This document shows positions 6,259-55,643 of a DNA stretch of 64,000 bases, one piece after another. The translations under genes were made by a program, and so were the position numbers. Position 1 is the stretch's first letter; each line of letters begins with the position of its first letter. The stretch covers positions 160,001-224,000 of the forward strand of contig CM000434.1 in NCBI GenBank assembly GCA_000165345.1, in the 5' to 3' direction. The notes under the pieces were generated by a model. That model did no database searches. It saw nothing but the letters and a program-made list of their open reading frames with translations, and was not told the origin of the DNA.

Positions 6259-9200
6259 ATGGATCCTGTGGGAGCAATGAAGTCAATGATGGGAATGGTT
6301 GGATCTAACCTAGTTAGTTCAGCAAAACATGCAACTAAGCAAATGGTGAGTAAGATCCGTCAGAAAGCTGATCCCAGATCATATAGTAGCTCAAAAAAGA
6401 AAAAAAATAAAGCTGATAATGGTCAGAATATAGAAGGTACAAATATAAGTGATGACGATGATTTGAATGATTCAATGCTTCCTAATAGAAGAGATCATGG
6501 CAAAGAAGCAAGGAATAGAGATATAAATGGAGAAAATCTGGAAGTTAACAGTAATTTAACTCATGAATCATCAGATGACGAGTCAATTTTGGATTTTAGA
6601 GATCGAGTTGTAACAGAACAAGAATTCAAGAGATTAGCAGAACTTCTTGGTAGAGATATAAAAATGACAAATAGAGGTAATTCTGAAATGGAGAAACAAA
6701 TATGGTTAACTCCAAGAAGATTTAGGACTACAATACGATCAGTGCAGATTGAAAATCTAACAAAAATTGAACAGAAGAATGTATTTTTAGAATTTTCATT
6801 TGGAGGAACACTTACAGAAGTTAGACTATTGAATAGTAATACCGGCCAAGAAGTTCCAAGATTGTTGGGATATCCAGCATGCAAAGAATTTTTTACACAT
6901 ACTGTTGATATTAAACCGTTTTATATTGAAAATAATGATGAGTTACTTATTGATATTCCTGATGAAAATGGTAAAGACTATGATATGGAGCTCAAAAATA
7001 ATAATTCGATTGAAATTTCATTAGATGAAACTTTTGAATGGAGAGGTAGTTATTTACATTTAGAAAGGGAATTATTTAGAATTATTGCTTGGAGAGCTAA
7101 TTCAGCAACTGTTAATGAGTTATTAGGATATAATGAAGATATATTAAAAAATTATGCAACGGGAAGTGTTAATCAAATGATTACTTTATCAAAAAGAACA
7201 CATAATAATATATCAAATCCTATTTTTAGAATTACATTACAAATTATATTTCAAGAAATTTATGATTTTCAACTAAGCCTATCTCAATTCACTTTAAGAA
7301 ATATTAGTAATGACAATGAGAATTCCTCTCCTTCAGAACGAAAACATTCTCAAAATATTTATAATGATCATGAAATTGAATATAATCATGACAAAAAAAG
7401 TAACAAAAAGCAAACTAGTCGTGATAATACAAATATAATTAACGATCAAAATACTGTAAAAATTGATTTGAGAGATGATCAAGAATTAAATTTTAATGAA
7501 AAAGGAAGGCTTATTTCTAATAATCATTCAACATCTTGTAGATTGAATATCAAGTTCCCATCTTTTGGAATAGATAATCCTTTACCAACTAAATGTACTT
7601 CAACTTGGTCAGAATGTTATGAGAAACAAAATAAAATTATTAGATGGGATAATATTGGTATGATTCCTTTTAGAGGTACAATACATGAATTGGAAAGAAA
7701 TAATTTACATGCAAATTTAGAAATTAATTCAACTGGCAAAACTCATAATATTTTTAAATCTACAAAACAAGTCCATTGTACTTTTAATCTTAAAAATATT
7801 GTCTATTATCCCTATATTCAGACTGAAATTAAGCTTCCTGATGGAGAATCTTGTATACTTGAAGGAAAAATAGAATTTGGAAATATACCCAAATATCATC
7901 AATTGGGTAATATTTTAGAAATTGATGATGAAAATAAATTATATCTTATAATCAAAATTATTCGAATTGATAATTTAATCTTGAACATTTATGAAGTCAA
8001 CAATATTCTTCAAGATACTGAAAATGATGATTCTATGGATGTTTATGTTCAGTTAAGCTTTGATGGTAATCGAAAAGAAACGCCTGTAGTTTCTGGTACA
8101 TTACATCCACTCTTTCAAACTGAACTTACATTTATATTGGATTATATTGATCATGAAAAAAAGCCTAACGAACTTGACGCTCATTCTTTAGCCAAACTTT
8201 TAGAAAGAAAAGGTCCGATTGTTATTGATGTGTGGAGAAAAAATAAATCATCAATGGCACAACATTTAGGATGGACTGAAATTCATTGGAAAGATATTCT
8301 AATAAAAACTAATCATTCAAATTATTCTGGAAATGAATTTTCTGATTTAAAATTAAATCAACAATTCTCACCTTTAAAATTTGACCCTACTAATAATTTA
8401 ATGGACAATGCTAGTAATGCATGCTTAGGCGCCAACATGCTTAGGCGCCAAGAATACCGAAAATTTTATGATCGCAATATAGGTAAAGAAGTTGTATATG
8501 AAACAAGAGTATATCAGGATGCGAGTATATTATATAATTTAGGTCAAAGGCCCAGTTCTTTAGGGTCTTATACAAATGAAACAATCTCGCCGAAAGTATA
8601 TTTGGAAATATGGACAAAGCCTGATATAAGTTGCATGTATAATATTGGTTCAACGTCAGCATTACTAGTAAGAGGTAATAATGAAGTTGTGGGAGAAGTT
8701 TCTAAATATTTTGTTGATCGATTAAATAGAATTGTTGAGTGGTCAGGCATTGGTCCATCATTAAAGAATTCAAGAATAAGATCAAATATTTTTTATTGGG
8801 AATATGTTACTAAATCATTTGAGACTTGGGGAAGACAATATTCATATTATAGTTTGGATTCAAGAGGTGTAAGGCACTTACTTCCATCATTCTTACAACC
8901 TTTAAAACCTCTTACTGGTGTTGATAATTCCTCAAAAGTACATCATTTTATTCATTCTTTTCCATATTTACCAACTACAAATAATGAAATATGGAGAACT
9001 CCTGATTTATTCTTATTATCAAGACAAGGTACTCCATTTGATCATACATTATTGCAGGTATGTTTATTATTGGGTTTAAATAGAATAGCTTTTTTGGCAT
9101 GCGGTACTTTATTGAATAGAGATCCATATTCATGGGCAGTAACTATACATTATGAGTATATTATGAGTGAAAATGATGATTTATTTAATTTAAGTAAGGA

Positions 9201-11256
9201 TGGAAATTTATTTAAAAAAGAATCTCATGGAATTGGAGGTAGAAGTAGGAGAGTTTCTACTCTTAATTTTGGAAGAAATAAAAAACATAGTAATATGAGG
9301 TCAATATCACCAGCATTAATGAAGACAACATCTGATAGGAAGAATTATAAATCAGAAAAAAGTCATATATTAGGATCTAATCGAAGTAAAATGAGGTCAT
9401 TATCTCCAATTTCTATTAATCTTGGTCAAAGGATGCATAGGAAGTCATCTATTATTAATGATAATGAACATCGATTTAGTTTAAGTAAATCAACTGAAGC
9501 AATTCATGATCATAATCATAATACATCATCAAAAAATAGTATTAGACAAAATTCTATAAGATTTTATGCATTATTTTGGGATACTGTAAAACATGTTGTT
9601 TATAGAGTTAATGATATTGTTCAAGAATCAAAACATGATGAATTTATTCAATGGATTAAAGAAGAAGGATATGATATTAATCAGTTAAATGAATTAGCAT
9701 TAGAATCATTATTTTCTCAAAGAAATTATCATCAAGATAAATATAGAAATATACAATATAAACCAAATTTCTGTTTAAAAGTTATTAATAAGTTACCATA
9801 TAGAACTTTGGATTTATTGGTTAATAATAAAAATATATATGCAAATATACAACAAGTTAATGATCCATTAAAATTATCATATAATTTAAATGATAGTAAG
9901 CTTTGGTATTCATTCTTTCCAAAAAAAACTGATCAATTTAATCATATTAAAATGAATAATCAAAGAATTCAAGGAGAAATTGAAGGTAAAGGAATATTAA
10001 ATCAATTACCAATAACACAAAATAGTTCAAATATATCAGCATGTTTTTCATGGCCAATAATTAATCTTGTAACTGATACTACTAGTAATAAACCTGGAAA
10101 GAATAATAAAGGAAGATCAGTTACTGGTGATTATCATATTCATAATAATAATAGTAATAATGATTATTTTGATCAAGATCAATTTGGAAGATCTAATAAT
10201 AAAGATAAGAATATTAATGGTATTATTGGTAATGATCATAAGAGTAAAGGTAAAGCAAATAACGGTTTAAAATCATCTACTGGAATGAGTTTTGGATTAA
10301 ATAGGTCAAAAGATGAACATTCAAGTATAGAGAAGAAGTTTTTAGAGAATAATGTGATTATGGATGCTGAACTAGATTTATATTGTAGAAGTATTAATGA
10401 TGAGATTATGAGATATGTACAGATTCAAAGATTTCAAAAATCACGTACAATAGGTACAAGATGGAATAGAGAAAACGAGAATATGATATTTTTAAGAATG
10501 GGATTAAAGTTATTAGGTAAATGGGAGATGTCAGATCCATATACTCGTGATTATTATAAAAATAAGACTGAATTTTTGAAATGGAGAGAATCATTTTTAT
10601 CAACAGTACCAACAAAATATAGGATGAAATATGCAATATTGACTTTTCCATGTAATGTTCCAAAATGGATAGCACAACAAGTTTGGTTTAAATGTAGCTT
10701 TTTATCAAATGAGACTGATAAAAGATCAATATTTTCTTTATCAGTAGATATTAATAGTTGGCCAAATAATATTCAATCAATAAGGATATTAATATTGGTA
10801 GTACATCCTTTGAAATCTAATCAGCTTAGAAAGCTTCAATTATTACAAAAGATGAGTATATCAAATTCAGTTAGTAACAATAATATCAATAACAACAATA
10901 ATAATAACAATAATAGTAACAATATTCATCAAACAATGAAGATTAATATAAAAGGTCCTTCCAGGAATGAAAGAGAAAATATTTCTGATTCAATTAAAGA
11001 AGATAATAATAAAGGTAATGATAAAGTAACAAAGCAAGGTTTGGATAAATTAGAAATTCCAGAATTCTCAAATGAATTATTGATAAAGGAGAGTGATAAA
11101 AAGAGCGTGGATGAGGATAAGGATGAGAAAAAGAAGGAAGATAAAGAGGAAAAGAAGAAAAAGGATAACAATAGCGAAAAAGAGAGAAGAAGAGCATCTT
11201 CAATTATATTCTCAGACGAAGAAGATGAGCCTGAGCTTAAACTGTTACATCCATAA
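6259..11256 (+). CDS. Large hypothetical protein (1665 aa) with a C2-like beta-sandwich segment, an Asn-rich insert and a Lys/Glu/Asp-rich C-terminus
   Basis: Long ORF with a verified ATG. The C2-like stretch is DVYVQLSFDGNRKETPVVSGTLHPLFQTELTF. The low-complexity region is NNNINNNNNNNNNSNN and the tail is KDEKKKEDKEEKKKKD. No confident family assignment. Confidence 0.55.
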   Translation: MDPVGAMKSMMGMVGSNLVSSAKHATKQMVSKIRQKADPRSYSSSKKKKNKADNGQNIEGTNISDDDDLNDSMLPNRRDHGKEARNRDINGENLEVNSNLTHESSDDESILDFRDRVVTEQEFKRLAELLGRDIKMTNRGNSEMEKQIWLTPRRFRTTIRSVQIENLTKIEQKNVFLEFSFGGTLTEVRLLNSNTGQEVPRLLGYPACKEFFTHTVDIKPFYIENNDELLIDIPDENGKDYDMELKNNNSIEISLDETFEWRGSYLHLERELFRIIAWRANSATVNELLGYNEDILKNYATGSVNQMITLSKRTHNNISNPIFRITLQIIFQEIYDFQLSLSQFTLRNISNDNENSSPSERKHSQNIYNDHEIEYNHDKKSNKKQTSRDNTNIINDQNTVKIDLRDDQELNFNEKGRLISNNHSTSCRLNIKFPSFGIDNPLPTKCTSTWSECYEKQNKIIRWDNIGMIPFRGTIHELERNNLHANLEINSTGKTHNIFKSTKQVHCTFNLKNIVYYPYIQTEIKLPDGESCILEGKIEFGNIPKYHQLGNILEIDDENKLYLIIKIIRIDNLILNIYEVNNILQDTENDDSMDVYVQLSFDGNRKETPVVSGTLHPLFQTELTFILDYIDHEKKPNELDAHSLAKLLERKGPIVIDVWRKNKSSMAQHLGWTEIHWKDILIKTNHSNYSGNEFSDLKLNQQFSPLKFDPTNNLMDNASNACLGANMLRRQEYRKFYDRNIGKEVVYETRVYQDASILYNLGQRPSSLGSYTNETISPKVYLEIWTKPDISCMYNIGSTSALLVRGNNEVVGEVSKYFVDRLNRIVEWSGIGPSLKNSRIRSNIFYWEYVTKSFETWGRQYSYYSLDSRGVRHLLPSFLQPLKPLTGVDNSSKVHHFIHSFPYLPTTNNEIWRTPDLFLLSRQGTPFDHTLLQVCLLLGLNRIAFLACGTLLNRDPYSWAVTIHYEYIMSENDDLFNLSKDGNLFKKESHGIGGRSRRVSTLNFGRNKKHSNMRSISPALMKTTSDRKNYKSEKSHILGSNRSKMRSLSPISINLGQRMHRKSSIINDNEHRFSLSKSTEAIHDHNHNTSSKNSIRQNSIRFYALFWDTVKHVVYRVNDIVQESKHDEFIQWIKEEGYDINQLNELALESLFSQRNYHQDKYRNIQYKPNFCLKVINKLPYRTLDLLVNNKNIYANIQQVNDPLKLSYNLNDSKLWYSFFPKKTDQFNHIKMNNQRIQGEIEGKGILNQLPITQNSSNISACFSWPIINLVTDTTSNKPGKNNKGRSVTGDYHIHNNNSNNDYFDQDQFGRSNNKDKNINGIIGNDHKSKGKANNGLKSSTGMSFGLNRSKDEHSSIEKKFLENNVIMDAELDLYCRSINDEIMRYVQIQRFQKSRTIGTRWNRENENMIFLRMGLKLLGKWEMSDPYTRDYYKNKTEFLKWRESFLSTVPTKYRMKYAILTFPCNVPKWIAQQVWFKCSFLSNETDKRSIFSLSVDINSWPNNIQSIRILILVVHPLKSNQLRKLQLLQKMSISNSVSNNNINNNNNNNNNSNNIHQTMKINIKGPSRNERENISDSIKEDNNKGNDKVTKQGLDKLEIPEFSNELLIKESDKKSVDEDKDEKKKEDKEEKKKKDNNSEKERRRASSIIFSDEEDEPELKLLHP

Positions 11257-11466
11257 TGAATTATAATATATTTTAATTAATGATTAATTAATTAATAATT
11301 ATTCTAATATTGAAATTAGTTTCTAAAATAATGAATAGAATAAGCAAAACTCCTTTTCTACTCGTTTATTTGTAATATAAGTAAATTGTTGGTAGTTAAA
11401 TAAATTAGGTTTGTATCTATATGTATGTAGAATTGGGGTTCTTGTAAATTTTATAGCATAAATAAG

Positions 11467-12525
11467 TTAGAAATCTGCATTCAAATCAAACTTTTGGTCA
11501 TCTTGATTGACCATAACTCCAGCCATTTGATATTCACCAACTCTCTTTTCGAAGAAGTTAGTTTTACCTTGAAGTGAAATAAGGTCCATCCAATCAAAAG
11601 GATTAGAAACGTTGTAGATTTTTGGAATATCCAAGGCAAAAAGTAATCTATCAGCAACAAATTCAATATATTGGGCCATAAGTCTCGAATTCATACCAAT
11701 AAGATCAACAGGAAGAGAGTCACAAAGAAAGTTTCTTTCAACTTCAACAGCTTCTGATATGATTTGTTGTACTCTAGGAGCTGGTAATTTAAATTTAAGG
11801 GCTTTATATATTAAACAAGCAAAATCAGCATGGAGACCTTCATCACGACTAATAAGTTCATTAGAAAATGTGAGTCCAGGCATAAGTCCACGTTTTTTAA
11901 GCCAAAAAATTGCACAAAAGCTACCAGAAAATAGAATTCCTTCAACAGCACAGAATCCAATAATTCTTTCAGCAAAAGATCGCTCAGAATTCATCCATTT
12001 AGTTGCCCATTCTGCTTTCTTTTTTACAGCTTCAATATGAGAAATTGCTTCAAAGAGCATTTGACGTTCTTTAATTTCAGTAATATATCTATCAATAAGT
12101 AATGAATAAGTTTCACTATGTATTTGTTCAATAGACATTTGAAAAGCATAATACATTCTAGCTTCCGGTATTTGTATTTCTCTAAGGAAATTTACTGCTA
12201 AGTTTTCCATAACAATACCATCACTTGCAGCAAAGAATGCTAAAACATATTTGATAAAATGTCTTTCAGGGTCTTTAAGACTTTCCCAATCTCTAGTATC
12301 TTGACTTAGATCAATTTCTTCAGTAACCCAAAACGACGCTTCAGCTTTTTTATACATTGACCAAATATCTTTAATTAATTCTTTCAATTCATTTCTATTT
12401 TCTCGGCTGTATTTAAGCATTGGTTCATTAACTTGATTTATTTTTACTTCATTCACAAGTTTTTCAATATTTTCTTCATCTTTTGTTTCCTTTGTTAAAA
12501 TTACATTATTATTTTCCTCTGTCAT
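11467..12525 (-). CDS. RNR2: Ribonucleotide reductase small subunit R2 (class Ia, di-iron/tyrosyl radical)
   Basis: Canonical R2 motifs are present: [23 protein letters not shown] (Asp ligand), [10 protein letters not shown] (Glu/His ligands plus radical Tyr), [11 protein letters not shown] and [10 protein letters not shown]. The C-terminal R1-binding tail ends FDLNADF. ATG verified. Confidence 0.9.
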
Positions 12526-13419
12526 CTTTTTTTTCCTTTTTTTAAATTGATTTTAGTTACTCTCTATGTTTACTATTTTGATATTAATATTAATTTACGT
12601 GTGTGTTATTATTATATTATTAATATTTAAAAAATATATATATTTTTTAAAAGAAAAAAAAGAAAAACAAATATTATTACAAATAAATATTTTTATTTTA
12701 AAAAATTTATTAATTTTCTTTAATTTGTCTTTGTGCATATTGTTTTCTTTCAATTTATTGATTTACCTGAAATTTATTATTACTTTCTGTGTATTGGCGC
12801 CTAATGACCTGTTAAAAAAGGTATCGATAAATGTATTTATAAGATAATTAAATGATGGGGGGCGGTGAGTTCAAAAAATGTGGGAAAAGGCGGGCTATTT
12901 GCATGTCAATAGTAGTAGTTTTTACGATAGTTATTTAAAATTTTATTGATAATAAATGAATAAATCATTAATAGAATAAAACATTATTGTAGGAACAAGA
13001 ATAGAAATGTCGAGATATAAAGTATTTATTCTAGAGATTTAAGATTTGAAAAATACGATTTTACTTACTTTCAACTTTTTCTTTTTTCCCACTTTCTTCC
13101 ATTTTTTTTCTCCCCCAATTATTTTATATTTGTATTAATTATTTGAATAAGAGAAATAATTTATTTCATTTTTATTTTTTAAGTAAAAGAAAGAAATATA
13201 GATGGAAAAATTATAAGAAGGAAGAAAAAAATAAATAGGAAAGAAAAATTCAAAAATTCTTTTTTTTTCTCTAAATATTTTCAAGTATGAGACGGCGTAT
13301 AGGTACCCGGTATACTCACTCTCCCCTCTTTTTCATCAATTTTTTGCACACAAAAAAAAAATAAAAAACAAGAAAAATAAAAAAATTTGAATCAAATTAA
13401 TTAATTAAAGGAGAAAAAA
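12526..13419. promoter_or_regulatory. Shared divergent promoter region of R2 and the R2-like gene, with E2F-type and other GC motifs
   Basis: ATTGGCGCCTAAT at ~12793-12803; GGGGGGCGG at ~12857; AAAAGGCGGGCTATTTGCATGTC at ~12885-12908; GTACCCGGTATACTC at ~13296-13310. Confidence 0.45.
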
Positions 13420-14439
13420 ATGAATGAATCAAAGAAAGAATTATTAGAACAGCAAAAAAATGAATCAATCTTATTAGATAATCCTTTTAGATGGGTTTTA
13501 TTTCCAATAAAATATAGTAGATTATGGAGTTTGTATAAAAAATATGAGGTATCATTTTGGACAGCAGAAGTAATATCACCAATGGAAGATAAGACAAAAT
13601 TAATGAATATGGACGAAAAATTACTTGATTATATTGAAATGGCCTTTGCAAAACGTATTTATATTGATAATACATGCTTAGATACTGTATTGTTAACATG
13701 TGAATTATTAGGACAAGTACAAGTACCAGAAGCAAGAGGTTACTTTTCATTTACAATGTGTATGGAGAATATATATAAGGAATTATTTATGAATTATGTT
13801 GAAATGATACGTAAAAATAAGGAAAAGATTGAAAGGACAGATGAAGTGGAAAAGAAGGATGAGAATAATTTAAATAGTAAAATATCTAAAGAAGAATATG
13901 AATATAATTTAGAGAAGAAATTGAATGAATTAGAAGATTTTACAAAAATGAAGGAATTAGTTGGTAATTTTTACGATGAAGATACTTTATTTAGTGAAAA
14001 ACTTATCTATTATGTAATAATTAAAAAGATATTCTCATCTAGTATTCATTTACTTAGATTATCTTTTTCAATGAGAAATATATCAGAATCTGAATTACCT
14101 ACTCAACTTTGTGATGGTTTAGATAGAATACGTAGAGATGAACAATATCAAGTTGAGTTTTGTTTAAGTATTGCAAAATCTATGAAAACTAAACCAAGTA
14201 ATGATCAAGTAGTTAATTTATTAGAGCAAGCTATTATGTTAGAGAAGAACTTTATATTTTCAATTGTAGATCCACAAGTTCTTCAAATTGAAAGAGAAGA
14301 TATTGTTGCTTTTCTTTTATTTAATGCTGATGAAATACTTGTAGATTTAAAGTATCCAAGACAATTCAATGTTTCTAATCCATTCATAAATATTATGAAC
14401 GATTTTCCGTGCTCCTTCTCAAGAAGAAGCTGTTGCTAG
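13420..14439 (+). CDS. Divergent R2-like protein lacking several di-iron ligands and the radical tyrosine (catalytically inactive R2 paralogue, Rnr4/R4-like); 3' end uncertain
   Basis: Aligns with R2 throughout (NPFRWVLFPIKYSRLWSLYKKYEVSFWTAEV, QVPEARGYFSF, FNVSNPF). The ENIHSEMY equivalent is ENIYKELF (His to Tyr, radical Tyr to Phe), and the helix that carries a Glu ligand in R2 lacks it. The listed ORF ends ...FPCSFSRRSCC. The +1 frame continues to 14530 ending ...SQDF, just before an N gap. Confidence 0.65.
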   Translation: MNESKKELLEQQKNESILLDNPFRWVLFPIKYSRLWSLYKKYEVSFWTAEVISPMEDKTKLMNMDEKLLDYIEMAFAKRIYIDNTCLDTVLLTCELLGQVQVPEARGYFSFTMCMENIYKELFMNYVEMIRKNKEKIERTDEVEKKDENNLNSKISKEEYEYNLEKKLNELEDFTKMKELVGNFYDEDTLFSEKLIYYVIIKKIFSSSIHLLRLSFSMRNISESELPTQLCDGLDRIRRDEQYQVEFCLSIAKSMKTKPSNDQVVNLLEQAIMLEKNFIFSIVDPQVLQIEREDIVAFLLFNADEILVDLKYPRQFNVSNPFINIMNDFPCSFSRRSCC

Positions 14440-14539
14440 ACAAACTCTTACACAAACTCTTAAAGCTGCTCATTATAAAGCTTACCTAGAAATTTTTAGC
14501 AATCAATTGTCAACTTCTCAAGATTTCTAATTCACACTG

Positions 14540-14546
14540 NANNNNN
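14540..14546. other. Assembly gap (N run)
   Basis: Sequence reads gnannnnnag. Confidence 0.95.
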
Positions 14547-15178
14547 AGTTTTTTTTTTGATTCTTACTAATTATTATCTATAATTATTAGAAAATAATAT
14601 ATTAATGTTATTAATAATTCAAATTGTTTATATTAATTCTTAATCTTTTATTACTTAACATAATATGAAGATCCAAATCGAAATATTAAACAATTGATTT
14701 GAAATAGAAGTAAAAGATATTAAAACTATTAAAAAAAAGAAAATAGGAATAGAGAATAGAGAATAAATATATGAACTAATAATAATATATATAAACATTG
14801 AAAGTAAAATAAATAAGGAAATAGATATTTTTCTTTTGACACTAAATTTATTTATTATCCTAATAACTATATAAAGTGTCCATATATTATTGTTATTATA
14901 TTTTACATATATTTTTCCTGTAAAAATAAATTATGTTTAAAATCAACTCAACTCAATCTTTTATTTCAAAAATAACAATAATGTTTAAAACAATAAATCT
15001 TTCATATCATAACCCTTTTTTTTCAACTTTTCATTTATTTTTTCTCCACTATAAAAAAATGACGTGTCAAAGCTTCCCGCCCAATTCCATTTAATATATT
15101 ATCAAATATACATTTTTGAATGGAATTCATTCATGCAGGCATTATATACATGTTATTGGCGCCATTTGAAATTTGTAT

Positions 15179-16549
15179 TTAAGATCTTACCATTAATCTT
15201 CTAGAGTTTGGATTTTGGATTCTAGCTGATTCAGCAACCTCTGTAGTAGTGGTAGTGGTAGTAGTGGTAGTTGTAGTTGTGGTAGTTGTAGTTGTGGTAG
15301 TTGTAGTTGTAGTAGTTGTGGTAGTTGTGGTTGTAGTAGTAGTTGATGTAGAAGTTGATGATGTAGAAGTTGTTGATGTAGAAGTTGTAGGTACTGGAAT
15401 AGGTGGACCAAACTTATTTGTAAAGTTATTTAAAGCCAAAGCATCTCCCTTGTTAAAGATTCCAAAAGCTGGGAAAAATGAATTGTTATCTTTATCAATA
15501 CCAACAAGTCTATAATCAAATGAAGAAGGTAATGGTTCCAAAGGAGTGCCAGAAATAAATTCTGGTAATACATTATCATAAGTAACCACAGCAAAGAATA
15601 AAACTGTAATTAATCCTGTTGGATTAACATTTGGTTTTAATGATGGATAACTCAAACCTCTACCAAGTAAAATTAATCCACCATCTGGTTGACGGCCAAC
15701 AGCTTTTACAATAGCACAAACATTCACATGCTCAGATTTACCAAAGAATGGACCATTAGTATAAGTCTCTGCTCTACATACTTCATTCTTATCTGTCATA
15801 TAATCCAAAATAAGTGATTGAGAATTATCTTGATGTTCAGCAGTTGCTAAACTACAATGTTGTGGCAAACTATTAAGAGACATAATAGAAGGAACAACAA
15901 ATTTACCCTTAACCATATTATATCCAAATACAACTTCATCTTGAGCCCTATTACATGCACCTTTTGCAGCAAATTTACCTCCCCAAAATTTCTCAATACC
16001 TCTCATATCAATATCTCTTGTATCTGTTAATAAATCCAACATTGTACCATACATCATACCAGTTGGAATTACATCAGGTTGTAAACCAACTTCCAAAATA
16101 CACATTAAATCACGACTATTTTGTATTAAATCATCAACACTCGTTATATTGTAAATTGTACCTTTTTCACAATGACCATCTCTTGTAAAAGGAAGAGTTA
16201 AATAATTTCTATTTTCAACTCTTGGTCCTCCAAATATTGGAATACCTGGAATATTAAATGATTTAGATTCAACTCTTTGATCATTAGAATCTGATAAACT
16301 ATTTACATTTTGTGAAAATCTATCTCCTCTATTCATTAATGGATCAACAACTCTTTTTGAAAGTAATTGTGCTCTATTTCTAAATGAATCCATATTCCCA
16401 CCAGAATTTGGTTGAAATGAAGAGCCTTGTTGTGGTAATGAAGAAGAAATTCCTGTTGGAATACAACTAACTTTACCAAAATCCAAAATTAAACCCAAAA
16501 CAAAGTAAAATATAGATACCTTAAATATATTATTACTAATATTCATCAT
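15179..16549 (-). CDS. Secreted Thr-rich mucin-like glycoprotein
   Basis: ATG verified (MMNISNN...). Signal peptide IFKVSIFYFVLGLILDFGKVSC, a ~370-aa Cys-containing globular region, then TTSTSTTSTSSTSTSTTTT followed by an uninterrupted run of about 40 Thr, a classic O-glycosylated mucin stalk. No TM helix detected. Confidence 0.7.
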   Translation of the reverse strand: MMNISNNIFKVSIFYFVLGLILDFGKVSCIPTGISSSLPQQGSSFQPNSGGNMDSFRNRAQLLSKRVVDPLMNRGDRFSQNVNSLSDSNDQRVESKSFNIPGIPIFGGPRVENRNYLTLPFTRDGHCEKGTIYNITSVDDLIQNSRDLMCILEVGLQPDVIPTGMMYGTMLDLLTDTRDIDMRGIEKFWGGKFAAKGACNRAQDEVVFGYNMVKGKFVVPSIMSLNSLPQHCSLATAEHQDNSQSLILDYMTDKNEVCRAETYTNGPFFGKSEHVNVCAIVKAVGRQPDGGLILLGRGLSYPSLKPNVNPTGLITVLFFAVVTYDNVLPEFISGTPLEPLPSSFDYRLVGIDKDNNSFFPAFGIFNKGDALALNNFTNKFGPPIPVPTTSTSTTSTSSTSTSTTTTTTTTTTTTTTTTTTTTTTTTTTTTTTTTTTEVAESARIQNPNSRRLMVRS

Positions 16550-17689: not shown

Positions 17690-20600
17690 ATGTCAAAATA
17701 CACATTCACTGAATATAGAAGATTGAATAATTCTATATTCAGATTGGATGTATTTCCATTCATTACTATTTATATTGTTTTAATTTCAATCTTATTAGGA
17801 GAAATCTTCAGTTTAAGTAAAACAATCACTTATAAAGATGTTTTTGATTCATTCATTTATTTAATAAATTTCATACAAAATCTTAATAATTTAAATAATA
17901 CCATAAATTCGGTACCAGTACAAAATAATGAAATATTTAATGATTTAATATCAAATAATACAAATTATTTAAATGCTTCTGAATTGGATGATTCAAATTT
18001 AAGTGAAGAATTACAACTTATTATTGATAATGTTCCAATTAAATATATTGTTGCAATTTTTATCACAATTTTAATAAATTTATTAACTTTTCTTATGACT
18101 CAATGGAATTTGAAATTTAAAAGTATTATTTGTTTTAGTAAAATAAAAAAAAAATCAAATGGAACTTGTACAAGTTTAAATAATAAAACCACTACACATA
18201 TTATGGTAAATAGTTCCAAATATCCAAGTGAACTTTGTCCTTTAAAATATTCAACATGTATTGAACATGTTGGAAAACTTAAAGATTTTTATTCTTTAAC
18301 AAAAATTAAATCATGTTCAATTATTAATATGAACAAATCTTTTATTATACAAGTTGATGCAATTGATTATTATAAATATAAATCAGAAATTGAGAAAATT
18401 CTTTTAAAAAATATTAATAAAAGTGATAATTCCAATTTATTACCAAATTCTTCAAATATTAATTGGATAAAATTGATTAATTATGAAAAGAAAACTTTTA
18501 TATATAATAAATCAAAAGAAACTTTTATTAAAGCAAATTATCCAATAAATCTTCCAATAAAATCATATTTTGATCAATTAATACATAAAGGTGGTTTAAA
18601 TATGAATGAAATTATACTTCATAATAATTTATATGGAATTAATAATTATGAAATACCAAAAGAAAAATTTCTGGATTTATTTATTGAACAAATTATATCA
18701 CCTTTTTTCTTATTTCAAATATTTTGTGTATTACTATGGATACTTGATGAATATTGGCAAATGAGTTTATTTACTTTATTTATGTTATGTACTTAAGAGG
18801 CTCAAATGGTATTTAGAAGACTTAAAGAATCTGATGAAGTTAGAAATATGAGAAGACCATCATGTTTTATTCTTGTATATAGAGAATATACTTGGAAATA
18901 TATTAATACTGATCATTTATTACCTGGTGATATTATTGCAATTTCATCCACAATTTCTTCCAATTCTTTAAAAAATAAGAATTTTGATGAAAATAATAAT
19001 AATAATAATCAAGATGAAGAAGCAGTTTCTATTGCTCCTTGTGATTTTGTATTATTATCTGGAAGTATTACTGTAAATGAAGCAATGCTTACTGGTGAAT
19101 GTACTCCAAAAATGAAAGTATCAATGAATAATGACGAAGATGAAAATGAACAAGATAATAAATTGAATGAAAAGACTTTTGATATTGATGGATTTAAAAA
19201 TCATGTAATATTTGCAGGTACCAATATTATACTTACAAGATCTTCAATTGTTACAGAAAATAAAGAGTTCCAATCTATTATTAAAAAGATTTCAAATGAA
19301 TACCATAATTGTTATAATGTTGATAATATGAACTCTATTAAGAATCCAATGAACTTTAATGAAAAGTATAATAATAATGTCACTTCTTCTTACATTAAAT
19401 ATGATAATGATAAAATGATTTGTATTGGATATGTTCTTAGAACTGGATTTAATACTTATCAAGGAAAATTAATCCGTACAATTTCATCATCAGCTGAAAA
19501 GATCTCATCTAACAGTCTTGAATCACTAATTTTCTTAATGATGTTAATTTTTTGCTCATTAATAGCATCTTCTTATGTACTTTATTATGGAATTAATGAT
19601 CCTTCCAGAAATAAATTCAAATTAATTATCTCCTGCATTCACATTATAACTTCAGTTATTCCTCCAGAATTCCCCATCACACTTTCTGTTGCTGTAACTA
19701 TGGCAGTTGTTCAATTAACCAAAAAAAAGATTTATTGTACTGAACCATTTAGAATTCCATTTGCTGGTAAACTTAGAATATGTGCTTTTGATAAAACTGG
19801 TACTTTAACTAGTGATAAAATGATACCACATGGATTATTTGGAATTAACTTGTATAATAATGATGATACTTCTTGTATTACTTTTGATGATAATGATAAG
19901 TATAGTAATAACAATGAAGATAAGGATGAGATGAACAATAAAAAGTTAGCATCAGTATCGGGATCAAGGCAAGTGTTGGGATCAGAACCAATATCCAATT
20001 CTTCTGTTGATATACCATATTTATCTGATCTTATTATGGGATGTTGTAATGGACTTTCACTTAATGGAAAGACCTTGGTTGGAGATCCTATGGAAAAATC
20101 CATCAAAAAGAAATCATCCTGGAGAATTCATCACTCATCTGAAAATAATTATCATAACATTAAAGATAATTCAACATTTTCAATAGTTAGAAGATATCCT
20201 TTTTCACCAGAAGAACAAAGAATGACCAATATTGGAATTTTGCATATTCCTTCAGAAAAACAAAATTCATCATCAAGTAAATCTCAAACTTCTTCATCTT
20301 CATCTCAATCTCTATCTCCGTCTCATTCTGTAAAATTTCATAAAAGTCTTTCAAAACCTGATCCAAAAACTTATGGTCTTGTCATTTCTAAAGGAAGTCC
20401 AGAAATGATGCTTCAATTCTTTAAAAAAGATCCAGAATTTGATCAAAATTTATACAAAAATGTTGTACATGAATGTACTAAAAAAGGGTATCGTATATTA
20501 GCACTTGGTTCAAAATATTCTTGTATTAATGAAGTTAATAATCATCATTTAAAAAGAGAATTCTTTGAAAATGATTTAATATTTTGTGGTTTTCTTGCAT

Positions 20601-22072
20601 TATATTGTCCAATTAAAAAACATTCCAAATCTGTTATTCAAGAACTTAATCAAAGTAATCATCAATGTATTATGATTACTGGTGACAATATTCTTACAGC
20701 TTTCCATGTTGCAAAAAATGTATCAATTACCAATAATTGTAAAGATATACTCATTTTATCAAAATCTGATAATGAAAACTCTAATCATATTAATTATATA
20801 TGGAAATATTCAAATGGTAATATTTTTAATAAATTTGATAATAATTTAACTCATTTAATTCATATTAATAATGAATTTAATATTGGTATTACTGGTAATG
20901 TATTCCAATCTTTTATTGAAGACTTCAAAGAAACCAAAATACTTGAACAATTTCTTTTATTTACAAAAATATATGCAAGAATGTCTCCAAAAAATAAACA
21001 AACTCTTATTAATCTTTATAATAATATGGGTAATATGACTTTAATGTGTGGAGATGGTACCAATGATGTTGGTGCTTTAAAACATTCTCATGTTGGTATT
21101 TCTCTTCTTTCAAATGAATCATCATCAGATTCTAATAATAAAGATAATAATAATTCTCCATTTAATATTAAAAAAAATCAAAAATCCAACTTTTTTGAAA
21201 TTAAAAAAGATATTGAAGCCAGAATTAGACGTGGTGAAAAGCTTACAAAAGCTCAAATTCAACAAGAAATCTTGAAAGAATTCCAAAATATGGATGAAAT
21301 ACCAAAAGTAAAACTTGGAGATGCTTCTATTGCTTCACCTTTTACATATAAAGGTGAATCTCCCAATTGTATTATTAAACTTGTTAGATATGGAAGATCA
21401 ACTTTAACCACAGTATTATTAATGTATAAATTAATGGGATTAAATAGTATTGTATCTGCATTTTCTATGAGTGTATTAGCTCATGATGGAGTTAAATTTG
21501 GTGATTTTCAAACTACTGTAGAATCCATTATTATGAGTGGCTTATTCTTTCTTGTACTTAAAAACAAGCCAGCTAAAAAGCTTGTTCCACAAAAACCACC
21601 AAATAGTATTTTCAGTCCTATGATATTTTTATCATTTATTATTCAAGCATTAATTCATTTATTTGTTATTTATTTTGGATGGAAAATTTCATATTCTTTA
21701 ATGCCATTAAACTATTCAACAAATATTGATGGACCTTTTGAACCAAATATTATTAATACAACAATGTATTATTTATATACAGCTTGTCACTTAGCTTGTT
21801 TTCTTTCAAATGCACAAGGTCATCCATTTACTACTCCATTATCTGAAAATAAATATCTTATTTACACTTCAGCTTTAGTTATTTCATTCTTAATTACTTC
21901 AATTCTAGGAATATTTCCACATTTAAATATATTATTTTCATTGGTAACTTTACAAAGTAAATATTATCAATCAATTCTAATACTTCTTGTATTATTTGAT
22001 ATTTTTGGTACTCTATTAATTAATCAATTATTTAATCAACTTCATATTTACTTTGACAAATGCAAACATTAA
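17690..22072 (+). CDS. P5A-type cation-transporting ATPase (Spf1/ATP13A1-like); one reading frame interrupted by an in-frame TAA at 18794-18796
   Basis: The two listed ORFs 17690-18796 and 18806-22072 are in the same frame, and the M2 helix region continues across the stop (...FTLFMLCT*EAQMVFRRLKESDEVRNM). P-type motifs ICAFDKTGTLT, ITGDNILTAF and GDGTNDVGALK are present, plus the P5 M4 motif SVIPPEFPITLS. The low-complexity insert NENNNNNNQDEE is in the A-domain region. Confidence 0.75.
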
Positions 22073-35303: not shown

Positions 35304-36110
35304 TTTATCTTTTCCTAATAATTATATTTTTTTCTTCTTTATTTATATTAATTGGTAGAAAAGGGTTTATTTTTGTGAGAAGGGGATTAATATTATATTA
35401 AAAATTAATCTCAGGGAGTTTGAATAGATACAAAAACTTTTCCCCCAAGTAAATATATTTATATTTTAATATATTCTTTTCAAATTATATTAATCCTTTA
35501 ATTTCTCTTTCTTTCTCGTTATTGCTATTATTTATTATTATCCTCAAATATAAATAAATATTCTTCTTAATAACTATTCGATATTGATTTTGAATGAATT
35601 CTCCTTACAAACTTTTCTTTGTTCACTTCTAATTCGTTAATTCAGTCTGAATCTTCTGTAATATTCAAATGTTAATATTCAATTATTTTCAGTAATTAAA
35701 TCTTATAAATCATTGATTTCTAGCTAGTTATTTTATTCTGTACTCTTCAAACCCAAAAAAAAAACTACTTAACTTGGTCCTAACTTTATTAAATTAAATT
35801 TCCAAATCCTCTAGGTAGCACTATTCAAAAATATTTGTATTTAAAAAAGGAAATTTTCTGATTTACTTGTACATTACATTAAAATATGTAGTCCCCTAAT
35901 CACATATATATATACTTATATTTATCAACTTTTTTTCCTCCTCCTCTTTTTAAAATTATCTGTTTAATATTGGTTACACTTTCACAATTATAAGAAGATT
36001 AAGGAAAAAAAAACCAATAAATTACTGTAAACCCATTTATTGACTTTTTTACCCCCACCCTGCATTCCTGCTTCACTTACACACAAAAAGTCTTTAATAG
36101 ACGGATGAAT

Positions 36111-36156
36111 TTTGGCGGGAAATCCGCAATTTTTTTGCATGCTACAAAAAGGCGGG
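36111..36156. promoter_or_regulatory. E2F-like motif cluster: TTTGGCGGGAAAT, then GCATGC, then AAAGGCGGGTTG
   Basis: TTTGGCGGGAAA is the canonical E2F/DP site consensus. It lies ~800 bp upstream of the rhomboid start (minus strand) in a 2 kb region with few ORFs. Confidence 0.4.
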
Positions 36157-36439
36157 TTGTGGGGGAGGAATAATGAAAATTTAAAAAAAATAAAGAAAAA
36201 AAAATTGGAAGATCGATAAGTAACTTCTTATTTGCATTGATATATTTATGATATGACTGTTATTAAAAAAGATATTTAGTAAATATAAAGAGTAGGAAAA
36301 ACTAATATTCTAATCTTTCTTATCATAATTAATCAAATAATTTACTTTGTGACTTTCACCCAGAAATTTTTTGAGATTATAAAGAATTTCCCGCCAAAAA
36401 TGGGAATACAGTTATAATAGAAAAATAATAGTGGAATAG

Positions 36440-36655
36440 TTAATTATGAACATTATTATTTGATGAGATACTATTAGATTGTTGAGAAGTTAAGATTCTG
36501 GAGTTATTTTCTTGGGAGCTTATATTGAGATTAGTTTGGATGGAATTTAAATCTTCGTTTTCTTGTAGTTGTTTTGCTTTGTTTTTAATTCTCTCTTTTA
36601 AATCATTAATATCTTGAATTTTTAGTTCAATCAGAGTTCCTGGTCGAGTAAGCAT
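36440..36655 (-). CDS. Small hypothetical ORF (71 aa), possibly coiled-coil; weak
   Basis: It begins LIELKIQDINDLKERIKNKAKQLQENEDL. It lies in an otherwise ORF-free 2 kb region. No family assignment and it could be spurious. Confidence 0.2.
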   Translation of the reverse strand: MLTRPGTLIELKIQDINDLKERIKNKAKQLQENEDLNSIQTNLNISSQENNSRILTSQQSNSISSNNNVHN

Positions 36656-37261
36656 ATTTAGATTTTTTGAAATTGGTTACTTTGTTTCTTTTCTTTTTTT
36701 TAATTTGCGTTATTTGTGATGTACGATCTACCCCTTTTTTAGCTTAGTTAATAATATCAATAAGATTTTTTTTAGATTAGAAAGCTTACTCAAAGTGGTT
36801 TATATTGATTTAATTTAATCCAATTATACTTTATTAAATAGATTTTGATTGAATAGTGATTTTAATGGAATCTACTCGAAGAAATTAATACTTGGAGTTT
36901 AAAGCTAAAAATAACCAGAAACCTGCTTACTTAATTACTTATTTTTCTAATAATTCTTTATAAATTGTTTTCAAAATCTTTATTCTATGCAATTCAATTC
37001 CTTTTTTAAAAGAAAATATAATATTCTAACTAAAATTGGCGCCAAATTTTATTAACCCCAAGTTAATTTTTTTCTCTTTCATGGGAATGATTATTTTTAA
37101 ATGCTAATTGAATGAAGTGGCGCCTACCCCACGTATTAAAAACGCCAATTAGAATTTGCCTGAATTAAATAGAAAAAAAAATTATTTCAGTAGAATAATT
37201 AAAATTCTAGAGAAAAATGCTATTGGATATGAATATTAGAACGAAATGCTAAATCTAATGT

Positions 37262-46577: not shown

Positions 46578-55643
<9,066 letters not shown>

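Follow-up and report, generated by a model that had tools for sequence, protein, structure and literature searches.

Results

Organization of the ribonucleotide reductase locus

The DNA analyzed here is a 64,000-nucleotide stretch of chromosome 6 of Cryptosporidium parvum Iowa II (hereafter the window), and the subject of this report is a divergent pair of genes within it that encode small subunits (R2) of ribonucleotide reductase (RNR). The window is AT-rich (22–33% GC) and its open reading frames (ORFs) are long and intron-free. On the minus strand, 11467–12525 holds a canonical class Ia R2 of the R2_e1 type, identified from its ORF, its match to Pfam PF00268 and its metal ligands, and the 352-aa product is a 100% match to EAK89769.1 of C. 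parvum Iowa II. On the plus strand, 13420–14530 holds an R2-fold paralogue with a degenerate metal site, which PF00268, alignment and profile search assign to the R2_e2/PfR4 type. The start codons are separated by a divergent spacer of 894 bp (12526–13419). Published supplements name the canonical R2 cgd6_690, its neighbour cgd6_700 and the R1 gene cgd6_1950, and they place cgd6_680, a 1665-aa C2-domain gene, on the far side of cgd6_690; a full-text literature search for the identifiers cgd6_690 and cgd6_700 gave no match. The initial annotation of this DNA, made from the letters alone, had described a head-to-head pair of this kind, and both ORFs lie where it placed them. This pair of RNR small-subunit genes is known from Cryptosporidium and has already been annotated and published. 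What is added here is a frameshift artefact, ligand substitutions that hold across the genus, a promoter footprint with two islands, and PfR4-like proteins in chromerids and a gregarine.

The head-to-head pair and the same flanking genes were found in C. meleagridis, C. ubiquitum, C. canis, chipmunk genotype I, C. felis, C. bovis, C. ryanae and C. muris, with spacers of 501–904 bp in these eight, and the arrangement is thus kept in nine species from C. parvum to C. muris. Because flanking synteny is equally conserved, the arrangement of the pair alone is no proof of selection for co-regulation. The cgd6_700 protein is 23% identical to that of cgd6_690, compared with 25–29% to fungal and animal R2. 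The paralogue is no nearer to its neighbour than to outside R2, and nothing points to a recent duplication of the genes or to gene conversion between them.

The canonical R2 gene cgd6_690

The cgd6_690 product scores 341 bits on PF00268, and its closest solved structure is Plasmodium R2 (PDB 2p1i, E 4e-134). Ligand positions were scored in a MAFFT alignment of 93 sequences, comprising 12 Cryptosporidium paralogues of the cgd6_700 type and 81 ordinary R2, with E. coli numbering. In this alignment cgd6_690 has the ligands D, E, H, E, E and H and the radical Tyr, as do 81/81 ordinary R2, and together with the RDEGLH motif these residues characterize a class Ia eukaryotic R2 (R2_e1). The radical-transfer Tyr (GEYQ) is followed by the C-terminal heptapeptide FDLNADF, which aligns with FTLDEDF and FSFDEDF. 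Agreement with the 81 R2 in all seven columns bears out the view of 11467–12525 as a complete R2 with all ligands, the radical Tyr and the FDLNADF tail. One detail was amended: the His and Tyr of the radical motif are present as described, but the motif reads EQIHSETY in cgd6_690 and not ENIHSETY.

A sequencing error at the 3′ end of cgd6_700

As read in the window, the cgd6_700 ORF stops at 14439 after 339 aa, and the +1 frame runs on to 14530. The apparent frameshift is caused by an extra G at 14409 (plus strand) that is not in three other C. parvum assemblies (L001–L003). When this G is removed, the gene has 1110 nt and encodes 369 aa with the tail FSTSQDF; it ends at 14530 and not at 14546. 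The 339-aa form is deposited as EAZ51498.1/XP_001388304.1 and the 369-aa form as QOY40947.1 and others, and in the other assemblies and eight other species the product has about 355–378 residues and a tail of the FSTSQDF type. The window also differs at 14480, 14487, 14496 and 14509, and 14540–14546 is a run of N. These four mismatches hit T354, Q356 and F363, which are invariant in 12 orthologues, and a position with Ser in 11 of the 12. Since conserved residues are affected, 14409–14546 is low-quality sequence and not a real frameshift or pseudogene. Compared with the other assemblies, the 2004 Iowa II record contains a base-calling error at 14409, the extra G, and it is this error that leaves the deposited Iowa II cgd6_700 protein without its conserved R1-docking tail.

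Loss of metal ligands in cgd6_700 and its orthologues

The cgd6_700 ORF scores 132 bits on PF00268. All seven scored columns hold the ordinary residue in 81/81 R2, and three of the six ligands are also kept in 12/12 paralogues, namely D84 (D88 in cgd6_700), E115 (E116) and E238 (E241). The remaining three are replaced in 12/12, H118 by Y119, E204 by K202 and H241 by Q244, and the radical Y122 is replaced by F123 in 11/12, with Leu in C. bovis. The segments MENIYKELF, IIKKIF and RRDEQYQ of cgd6_700 stand opposite ENIHSETY, VEGIF and SRDEGLH of R2. Beside K202, the residue at K203 is K in 10 and R in 2 of the 12 paralogues. Pairwise HMMER alignments to solved R2 and Rnr4 structures concur with MAFFT at 6/7 scored positions. 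The exception is the first Asp ligand, which was ambiguous in an 11-sequence MAFFT alignment and in the pairwise HMMER alignments; HMMER pairs D82 or leaves the column unaligned, and MAFFT pairs D88. D82 was rejected as the ligand, as it is not conserved across the genus and the 93-sequence alignment gives an invariant D88.

These substitutions (H118→Tyr, Y122→Phe, E204→Lys) uphold the claim that the paralogue lacks the His ligand, the radical Tyr and at least one Glu ligand, and the alignment to R2 structures proposed as a check gave no retention of the full ligand set or of the Tyr. With three of six ligands and the radical Tyr replaced, cgd6_700 is predicted to be incapable of building the di-iron/tyrosyl cofactor.

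The C-terminal radical-transfer Tyr (GEYQ) is also replaced, by Thr in the alignment column. The tail QFSTSQDF aligns with FDLNADF and FTLDEDF and keeps the F-x4-DF pattern of the R1-docking type, and the C-terminal stretch of about 40 residues, nearly invariant genus-wide, is the most conserved part of cgd6_700. After the ENIY helix about 30 residues are inserted, many of them acidic or Lys.

An AlphaFold model of cgd6_700 built on a deep alignment reached a predicted local distance difference test score (pLDDT) of 84 and a predicted template modelling (TM) score of 0.83, and against the P. vivax, human, mouse and yeast R2 and Rnr4 structures its target-normalised TM was 0.79–0.90. Together with the PF00268 score, this agrees with the initial annotation in that the helical core of R2 is kept. 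Against three species, the ratio of nonsynonymous to synonymous substitution rates (dN/dS) was 0.05–0.13 for cgd6_700 and 0.04–0.09 for cgd6_690. By these sequence comparisons, cgd6_700 is a conserved R2-fold protein under purifying selection, and functional.

Relatives of cgd6_700

Orthologues of cgd6_700 at 59–97% identity occur in Cryptosporidium only. Word-indexed searches with the single sequence and with a profile recovered nothing but ordinary R2 beyond these orthologues and missed the link to PfR4. An exhaustive HMMER profile search of 1.84 billion representatives placed a Plasmodium protein (P0186) at 161.6 bits, compared with at most 128.7 bits for all others outside Cryptosporidium. 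P0186, with 335 aa, is the second such subunit of Plasmodium species ("ribonucleotide reductase small subunit, putative"), and we infer that it is of the PfR4 type. Next in rank come, among others, proteins of Chromera velia, Vitrella brassicaformis and the gregarine Blabericola migrator. The Plasmodium, Chromera, Vitrella and Blabericola proteins and cgd6_700 all have Lys at the E204 ligand column. The four relatives keep both His ligands and have Tyr, Trp, Gln or Phe at the radical position; among the Lys-bearing relatives compared, both His ligands are lost only in Cryptosporidium.

Munro, Jacob & Silva (2013; PMC3824934) defined an R2_e2 clade whose monophyly has 99% bootstrap support and in which three Cryptosporidium species were included, C. 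parvum being unnamed in the portion of the text searched. They described Phe at the radical position, a conserved C-terminus and a clade-specific "H_16 Lys" in R2_e2, and two adjacent R2 genes in Cryptosporidium only (PMC3824934). The arrangement is termed "tandem" in that paper, whereas here it is head-to-head. The features of this lineage are found in cgd6_700: the R2 fold and PF00268 domain, a second small subunit as closest relative, Lys in the H_16 helix and, after removal of the G at 14409, a retained C-terminal heptapeptide with loss of the radical-transfer Tyr (Munro's H_30). PfR4 binds PfR2 and R1 (Bracchi-Ricard 2005, as cited in PMC3824934). PfR4 of P. falciparum and cgd6_700 belong to the same gene family and share the Lys at the E204 column; the Plasmodium PfR4 type retains the radical Tyr and both His ligands, unlike Cryptosporidium with its H118→Tyr and H241→Gln.

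Among solved structures, the closest match to cgd6_700 is yeast Rnr4 (PDB 1jk0, 1sms; chain 1jk0_B, E 3.6e-27 for the single sequence and 5.8e-34 for the family profile), the non-catalytic beta-prime of Rnr2–Rnr4. Both proteins have the R2 fold with three of six ligands replaced, share the same His→Tyr change in ENIY and have lost the second His, and the cofactor loss of Rnr4 is paralleled in cgd6_700 by H→Y119, E→K202, H→Q244 and Y→F123. They differ in the lost Glu (E238→Arg in Rnr4, E204→Lys in cgd6_700) and at the radical position, where Rnr4 retains Tyr (ENIYSEVY) and cgd6_700 has Phe. The ordinary eukaryotic R2 clade includes Rnr4 but not R2_e2 (PMC3824934), and the two are of independent origin. 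With Rnr4 as closest solved relative and a PfR4-type protein as best match outside the genus, the likening of the paralogue to yeast Rnr4 and Plasmodium R4 proved apt. The yeast RNR2 and RNR4 genes are not adjacent.

The Chromera velia (Cvel_10991, P0188), Vitrella brassicaformis (CEM01728.1, P0189) and Blabericola migrator (P0213) proteins are divergent and R2-like, lack the radical Tyr and have Lys at the E204 column. From these sequences, the PfR4/R2_e2 type seems to extend to free-living chromerids and gregarines and so would not be confined to parasitic apicomplexans.

Conserved elements of the spacer

The four strings that had been singled out in the 894-bp spacer are all found at 12526–13419: ATTGGCGCCTAAT at 12793–12805, GGGGGGCGG at 12857–12865, AAAGGCGGGCTATTTGCATG at 12886–12905 and CCCGGTATAC at 13306–13315. 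In a footprint of the spacer across five species, two peaks rise above a background of 0–0.2 identical positions. These are two separate conserved islands, each nearer one gene, and the footprint has no single central element. An Rfam scan of 11000–16000 detected no RNA gene in the spacer.

Island A (12736–12835) peaks at 0.87 identity in the 30-bp window 12796–12825 and lies 211–310 bp from the cgd6_690 ATG and 585–684 bp from the cgd6_700 ATG. Its sequence runs ...TGTGTATTGGCGCCTAATGAC[G]TGTTAAAAAAGGTAYCG, and its best-conserved block holds the E2F/DP-type site TTGGCGCC at 12794–12801, the core of ATTGGCGCCTAAT, which fits the published motif [A/T][C/G]GCGC[G/C][A/T] (PMC3734150). The site is conserved 171–269 bp from the R2 ATG in C. 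parvum, C. meleagridis, chipmunk genotype I, C. ubiquitum, C. canis and C. felis, so a consensus E2F site recurs in the orthologous promoters of 6/9 species. C. bovis and C. ryanae carry TCGGCGGCAA instead (reverse complement TTGCCGCC). At 12805–12812 (plus strand) this record reads TGACCTGT, and the other C. parvum assemblies and four related species read TGACGTGT, which has an ACGT core; position 12809 is C only in this record and G in three other C. parvum assemblies and in C. meleagridis, chipmunk genotype I, C. ubiquitum and C. canis. Island A is probably a promoter module of cgd6_690 and may also serve cgd6_700.

The G-rich stretch at 12857–12905 (GGGGGGCGG, GGCGGGC and TTTGCATG) contains G-box, GGCGGG and GCATG-type motifs, classes known in C. 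parvum (PMC3734150). These strings show no positional conservation (0.07–0.10 identical), and G-runs recur near the stretch in C. meleagridis, C. ubiquitum and C. canis. In AAAGGCGGGC the A-run is on the wrong side for the E2F consensus TTTSSCGC. The unconserved positions of the G-rich and GCATG strings and the misplaced A-run weaken the case for shared E2F sites. The E2F-type cluster as a whole is 211–380 bp away from the start codon of cgd6_690, and over 510 bp separate it from that of cgd6_700.

Island B (TTTTCAAGTATGAGACGGCGTATAGGTACCCGGTATAC; 13256–13325, plus strand) forms the second footprint peak at 0.70, includes CCCGGTATAC and lies 95–164 bp upstream of the cgd6_700 ATG with the core GAGACGSCGT. 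The pattern GAGAC[GA]NCG[TC] (GAGACAACGT in C. meleagridis) was found in the same orientation in 7/9 species including C. muris, 97–283 bp from the paralogue ATG, and once in the 64-kb window. Island B is probably a cgd6_700-proximal promoter element.

The string ATGACGTGT has three exact copies in the window (15059, 44952 and 57081) against 0.06 expected from shuffles, and in other assemblies a further copy at 12804. Two of the copies and the corrected copy at 12804 are intergenic and near E2F-like GC boxes. It is not among the published C. parvum motifs listed in the sources consulted.

Expression of the pair

Transcript levels were taken from the RT-qPCR (reverse transcription quantitative PCR) data of Mauzy et al. 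(2012), with four replicates and seven time points and with the two genes on different plates. Both cgd6_690 and cgd6_700 have levels near zero at 2 h and their maximum at 6 h, rise again at 24–48 h and are low at 72 h, and the drop at 12 h is 17.5-fold for cgd6_690 and 18.3-fold for cgd6_700. The log medians correlate at r = 0.97 over the seven points. In other published data, levels of cgd6_690 and R1 are strongly raised in the intracellular stages. DNA synthesis requires R1 (PMC12368253), and in the CRISPR screen paper R1 (cgd6_1950) is the only one tested.

Other features of the window

In the convergent (3′–3′) region between cgd6_700 and cgd6_710, 15059–15083 resembles a promoter, with ATGACGTGTCAAAGCTTCCCGCC, an ACGT core and the E2F-like TTCCCGCC. 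Four species share the conserved ATGACGTGTCAAAGCTTCCCGCC module and C. canis has a diverged form of it, TTACGTGTCCGACTTTGCCGCC; a second TTGGCGCC occurs at 15156–15163, about 20 bp from the cgd6_710 stop codon. These elements may mark where an unannotated or antisense transcript begins, a possibility that can be set beside the E2F motifs reported upstream of many C. parvum long non-coding RNAs (lncRNAs). The product of cgd6_710 itself (15179–16549, minus strand) has 456 aa, begins like a signal peptide and carries a run of Thr/Ser, about 50 residues long, close to the C-terminus; from this composition it looks like a mucin-type surface or secreted protein, and no Pfam match was found for it in related loci.

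Within the coding sequence of cgd6_680, 8420–8452 is a 16-bp direct tandem duplication (CATGCTTAGGCGCCAA twice) whose copies join GCATGC (AP2-type) and GGCGCCAA (E2F-type); GGCGCC also occurs in coding sequence at 46711, 48762 and 60045. At 17690–22072, two same-strand ORFs of 368 and 1088 aa are split by a stop at 18797–18799, with the first ATG of the second ORF at 18806, and other species have a single P-type ATPase gene of about 1290–1400 aa in this position. Either a small intron or a further sequencing error accounts for the split. The 1.9 kb at 35304–37261 contain no ORF of at least 120 aa, with GGCGCC at 37038 and 37119 and GGCGGG at 36114, 36151 and 36390; a gene that is unannotated or has introns may lie here, or else a large regulatory region.

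Discussion

The above results show cgd6_690 to be a complete R2, transcribed divergently from cgd6_700 across a spacer with two islands, and we regard it as likely that cgd6_700 is its non-catalytic beta-prime partner. In the proposed model, cgd6_690 would be the radical-generating beta subunit, with which cgd6_700, by analogy, would pair as a beta/beta-prime heterodimer. The heterodimer would dock on R1 (cgd6_1950), an arrangement like that of yeast Rnr2–Rnr4 and P. falciparum PfR2–PfR4. On the regulatory side, Island A, nearer cgd6_690, would act through the E2F/DP-type TTGGCGCC followed by TGACGTGT, and Island B, nearer cgd6_700, through GAGACGSCGT. Both genes come on after invasion with like kinetics, and the E2F-type site would serve as a general activating element. 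Our best reading of the footprint is that the spacer holds two promoter modules, each proximal to one gene, and that these give the two genes expression patterns that are alike without being the same.

Several points weigh against this model. A functional test of cgd6_700 was absent from the literature searched, and the heterodimer and its R1 binding are carried over by analogy. The fold model of cgd6_700 is biased toward the R2 fold because its alignment consists mostly of canonical R2, and the AlphaFold model from the 12 paralogues alone is poor (pLDDT 60.7). C. muris, C. bovis and C. ryanae have neither an exact TTGGCGCC nor an exact GGCGCC in their spacers. Without the zero at 2 h, the correlation between the two time courses falls to r = 0.74 (p = 0.09), and R1 does not have the 12 h dip. 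In published clustering, cgd6_690 is in fuzzy cluster 108 without cgd6_700, and in oocysts cgd6_690 counts as off (0.50) and cgd6_700 as expressed at a low level (3.1). The co-expression check thus came out divided, the time courses being alike but the fuzzy clusters and the oocyst levels different.

E2F control of RNR genes is established in animals and plants; in Cryptosporidium, the motif marks a large share of promoters, open-chromatin peaks and lncRNA starts and is no signature specific to the cell cycle. The E2F motif TGGCGCCA of Cryptosporidium (Oberstaller et al., 2013, PMC3734150; Xiao et al., 2025, bioRxiv 10.1101/2025.01.17.633476) is the commonest promoter motif in C. parvum and is enriched upstream of DNA-replication, glycolysis and ribosomal-protein genes (PMC3734150). 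It is also common upstream of lncRNAs, and dominates the peaks of the assay for transposase-accessible chromatin with sequencing (ATAC-seq), more than half of which are annotated as bidirectional promoters (bioRxiv 10.1101/2025.01.17.633476). The window agrees with this picture, with 12 GGCGCC against 0.13 expected and 12 GGCGGG against 0.49; seven of the 12 GGCGCC sites are intergenic, and about two thirds of the promoter-bearing intergenic regions carry one or the other. The motif is therefore non-random, yet not special to this spacer, and because it is the commonest in the genome it says little about S phase. The site TTGGCGCC is probably a working promoter element, as a general signal and not as an S-phase marker.

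The strongest alternative concerns regulation, and holds that a single bidirectional promoter under E2F/DP control drives both genes specifically in S phase. The conserved TTGGCGCC in the spacer, the retention of E2F and DP genes in Cryptosporidium, the bidirectionality of more than half of the ATAC-seq regulatory peaks with E2F as top motif, and the similar qPCR profiles of the two genes are all in its favour, but we consider it doubtful. The footprint resolves into two islands with one nearer each gene, and the E2F-type cluster is set close to cgd6_690 (211–380 bp) and away from cgd6_700 (more than 510 bp). A motif that also stands at ribosomal-protein and glycolysis genes and lncRNAs, and of which this window alone has 12 GGCGCC copies, is not specific to S phase; moreover, the two genes belong to different expression clusters and R1 differs at 12 h. 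What survives of the co-regulated S-phase pair put forward in the initial annotation is the TTGGCGCC site in the best-conserved block and the similar qPCR profiles; the generality of the motif, the two islands and the lack of a common cluster speak against the remainder.

A further reading, which we offer tentatively, extends the model of a non-catalytic partner. In it, the Lys at E204 would mark an ancient lineage of the beta-prime type that predates parasitism, as the lineage is present in free-living Chromera and Vitrella, a gregarine, Plasmodium and Cryptosporidium. Cryptosporidium would have gone the greatest distance along this line, to a fully metal-free scaffold without either His ligand, and the GAGACGSCGT of Island B, which much of the genus shares, would set the expression of cgd6_700 in place of the general E2F site.

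As to the function of the protein, cgd6_700 might act as a negative regulator or decoy whose tail competes with R2 for R1 and so limits the synthesis of deoxynucleoside triphosphates. A protein that keeps the F-x4-DF tail, with its C-terminal 40 residues as the most conserved part, and has lost the radical machinery and the radical-transfer Tyr could behave in this way. We hold this to be improbable, since Rnr4 and PfR4 are positive components of the holoenzyme and cgd6_700 is co-induced with R2 and not in an opposite pattern. Rnr4 in particular is a positive component of the RNR holoenzyme of yeast.

It is very improbable that cgd6_700 has another cofactor and chemistry, as a class Ic-like R2 with Mn/Fe or an oxidase of the R2lox type. 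Both class Ic R2, such as Chlamydia trachomatis NrdB, and R2lox share the ferritin-like R2 fold with cgd6_700, Phe at the position of the radical Tyr is a hallmark of both groups, and Chlamydia R2c structures are among the fold matches. However, these proteins bind a Mn/Fe cofactor with a full set of six ligands in which Glu takes the place of Asp, and cgd6_700 has Tyr, Lys and Gln at three of the positions and Asp as first ligand. Its best sequence and fold matches are eukaryotic R2 and Rnr4, to which it is nearer, and Munro et al. report no close kinship to R2c or R2lox (PMC3824934). As cgd6_700 lacks the full ligand set, this identity was rejected.

Finally, that cgd6_700 is a decaying duplicate or pseudogene, as the broken frame at 14409 and the deposited protein of only 339 aa might suggest, was discarded as having next to no probability, given the absence of the extra G from three other C. 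parvum assemblies, the intact ORFs of 355–378 codons in 12 Cryptosporidium lineages, the dN/dS of 0.05–0.13 and the transcription of the gene.

The additions made here leave the current understanding without major change. In this genus, an E2F-type site near these genes should not be taken to mean that they are controlled in S phase. DNA synthesis in Cryptosporidium requires RNR (PMC12368253), and a lineage-specific non-catalytic subunit could be a selective drug target, an idea already put forward by Munro et al. (2013; PMC3824934). If the proposed role is true and cgd6_700 is essential, the protein would offer a parasite-specific route to the targeting of RNR.

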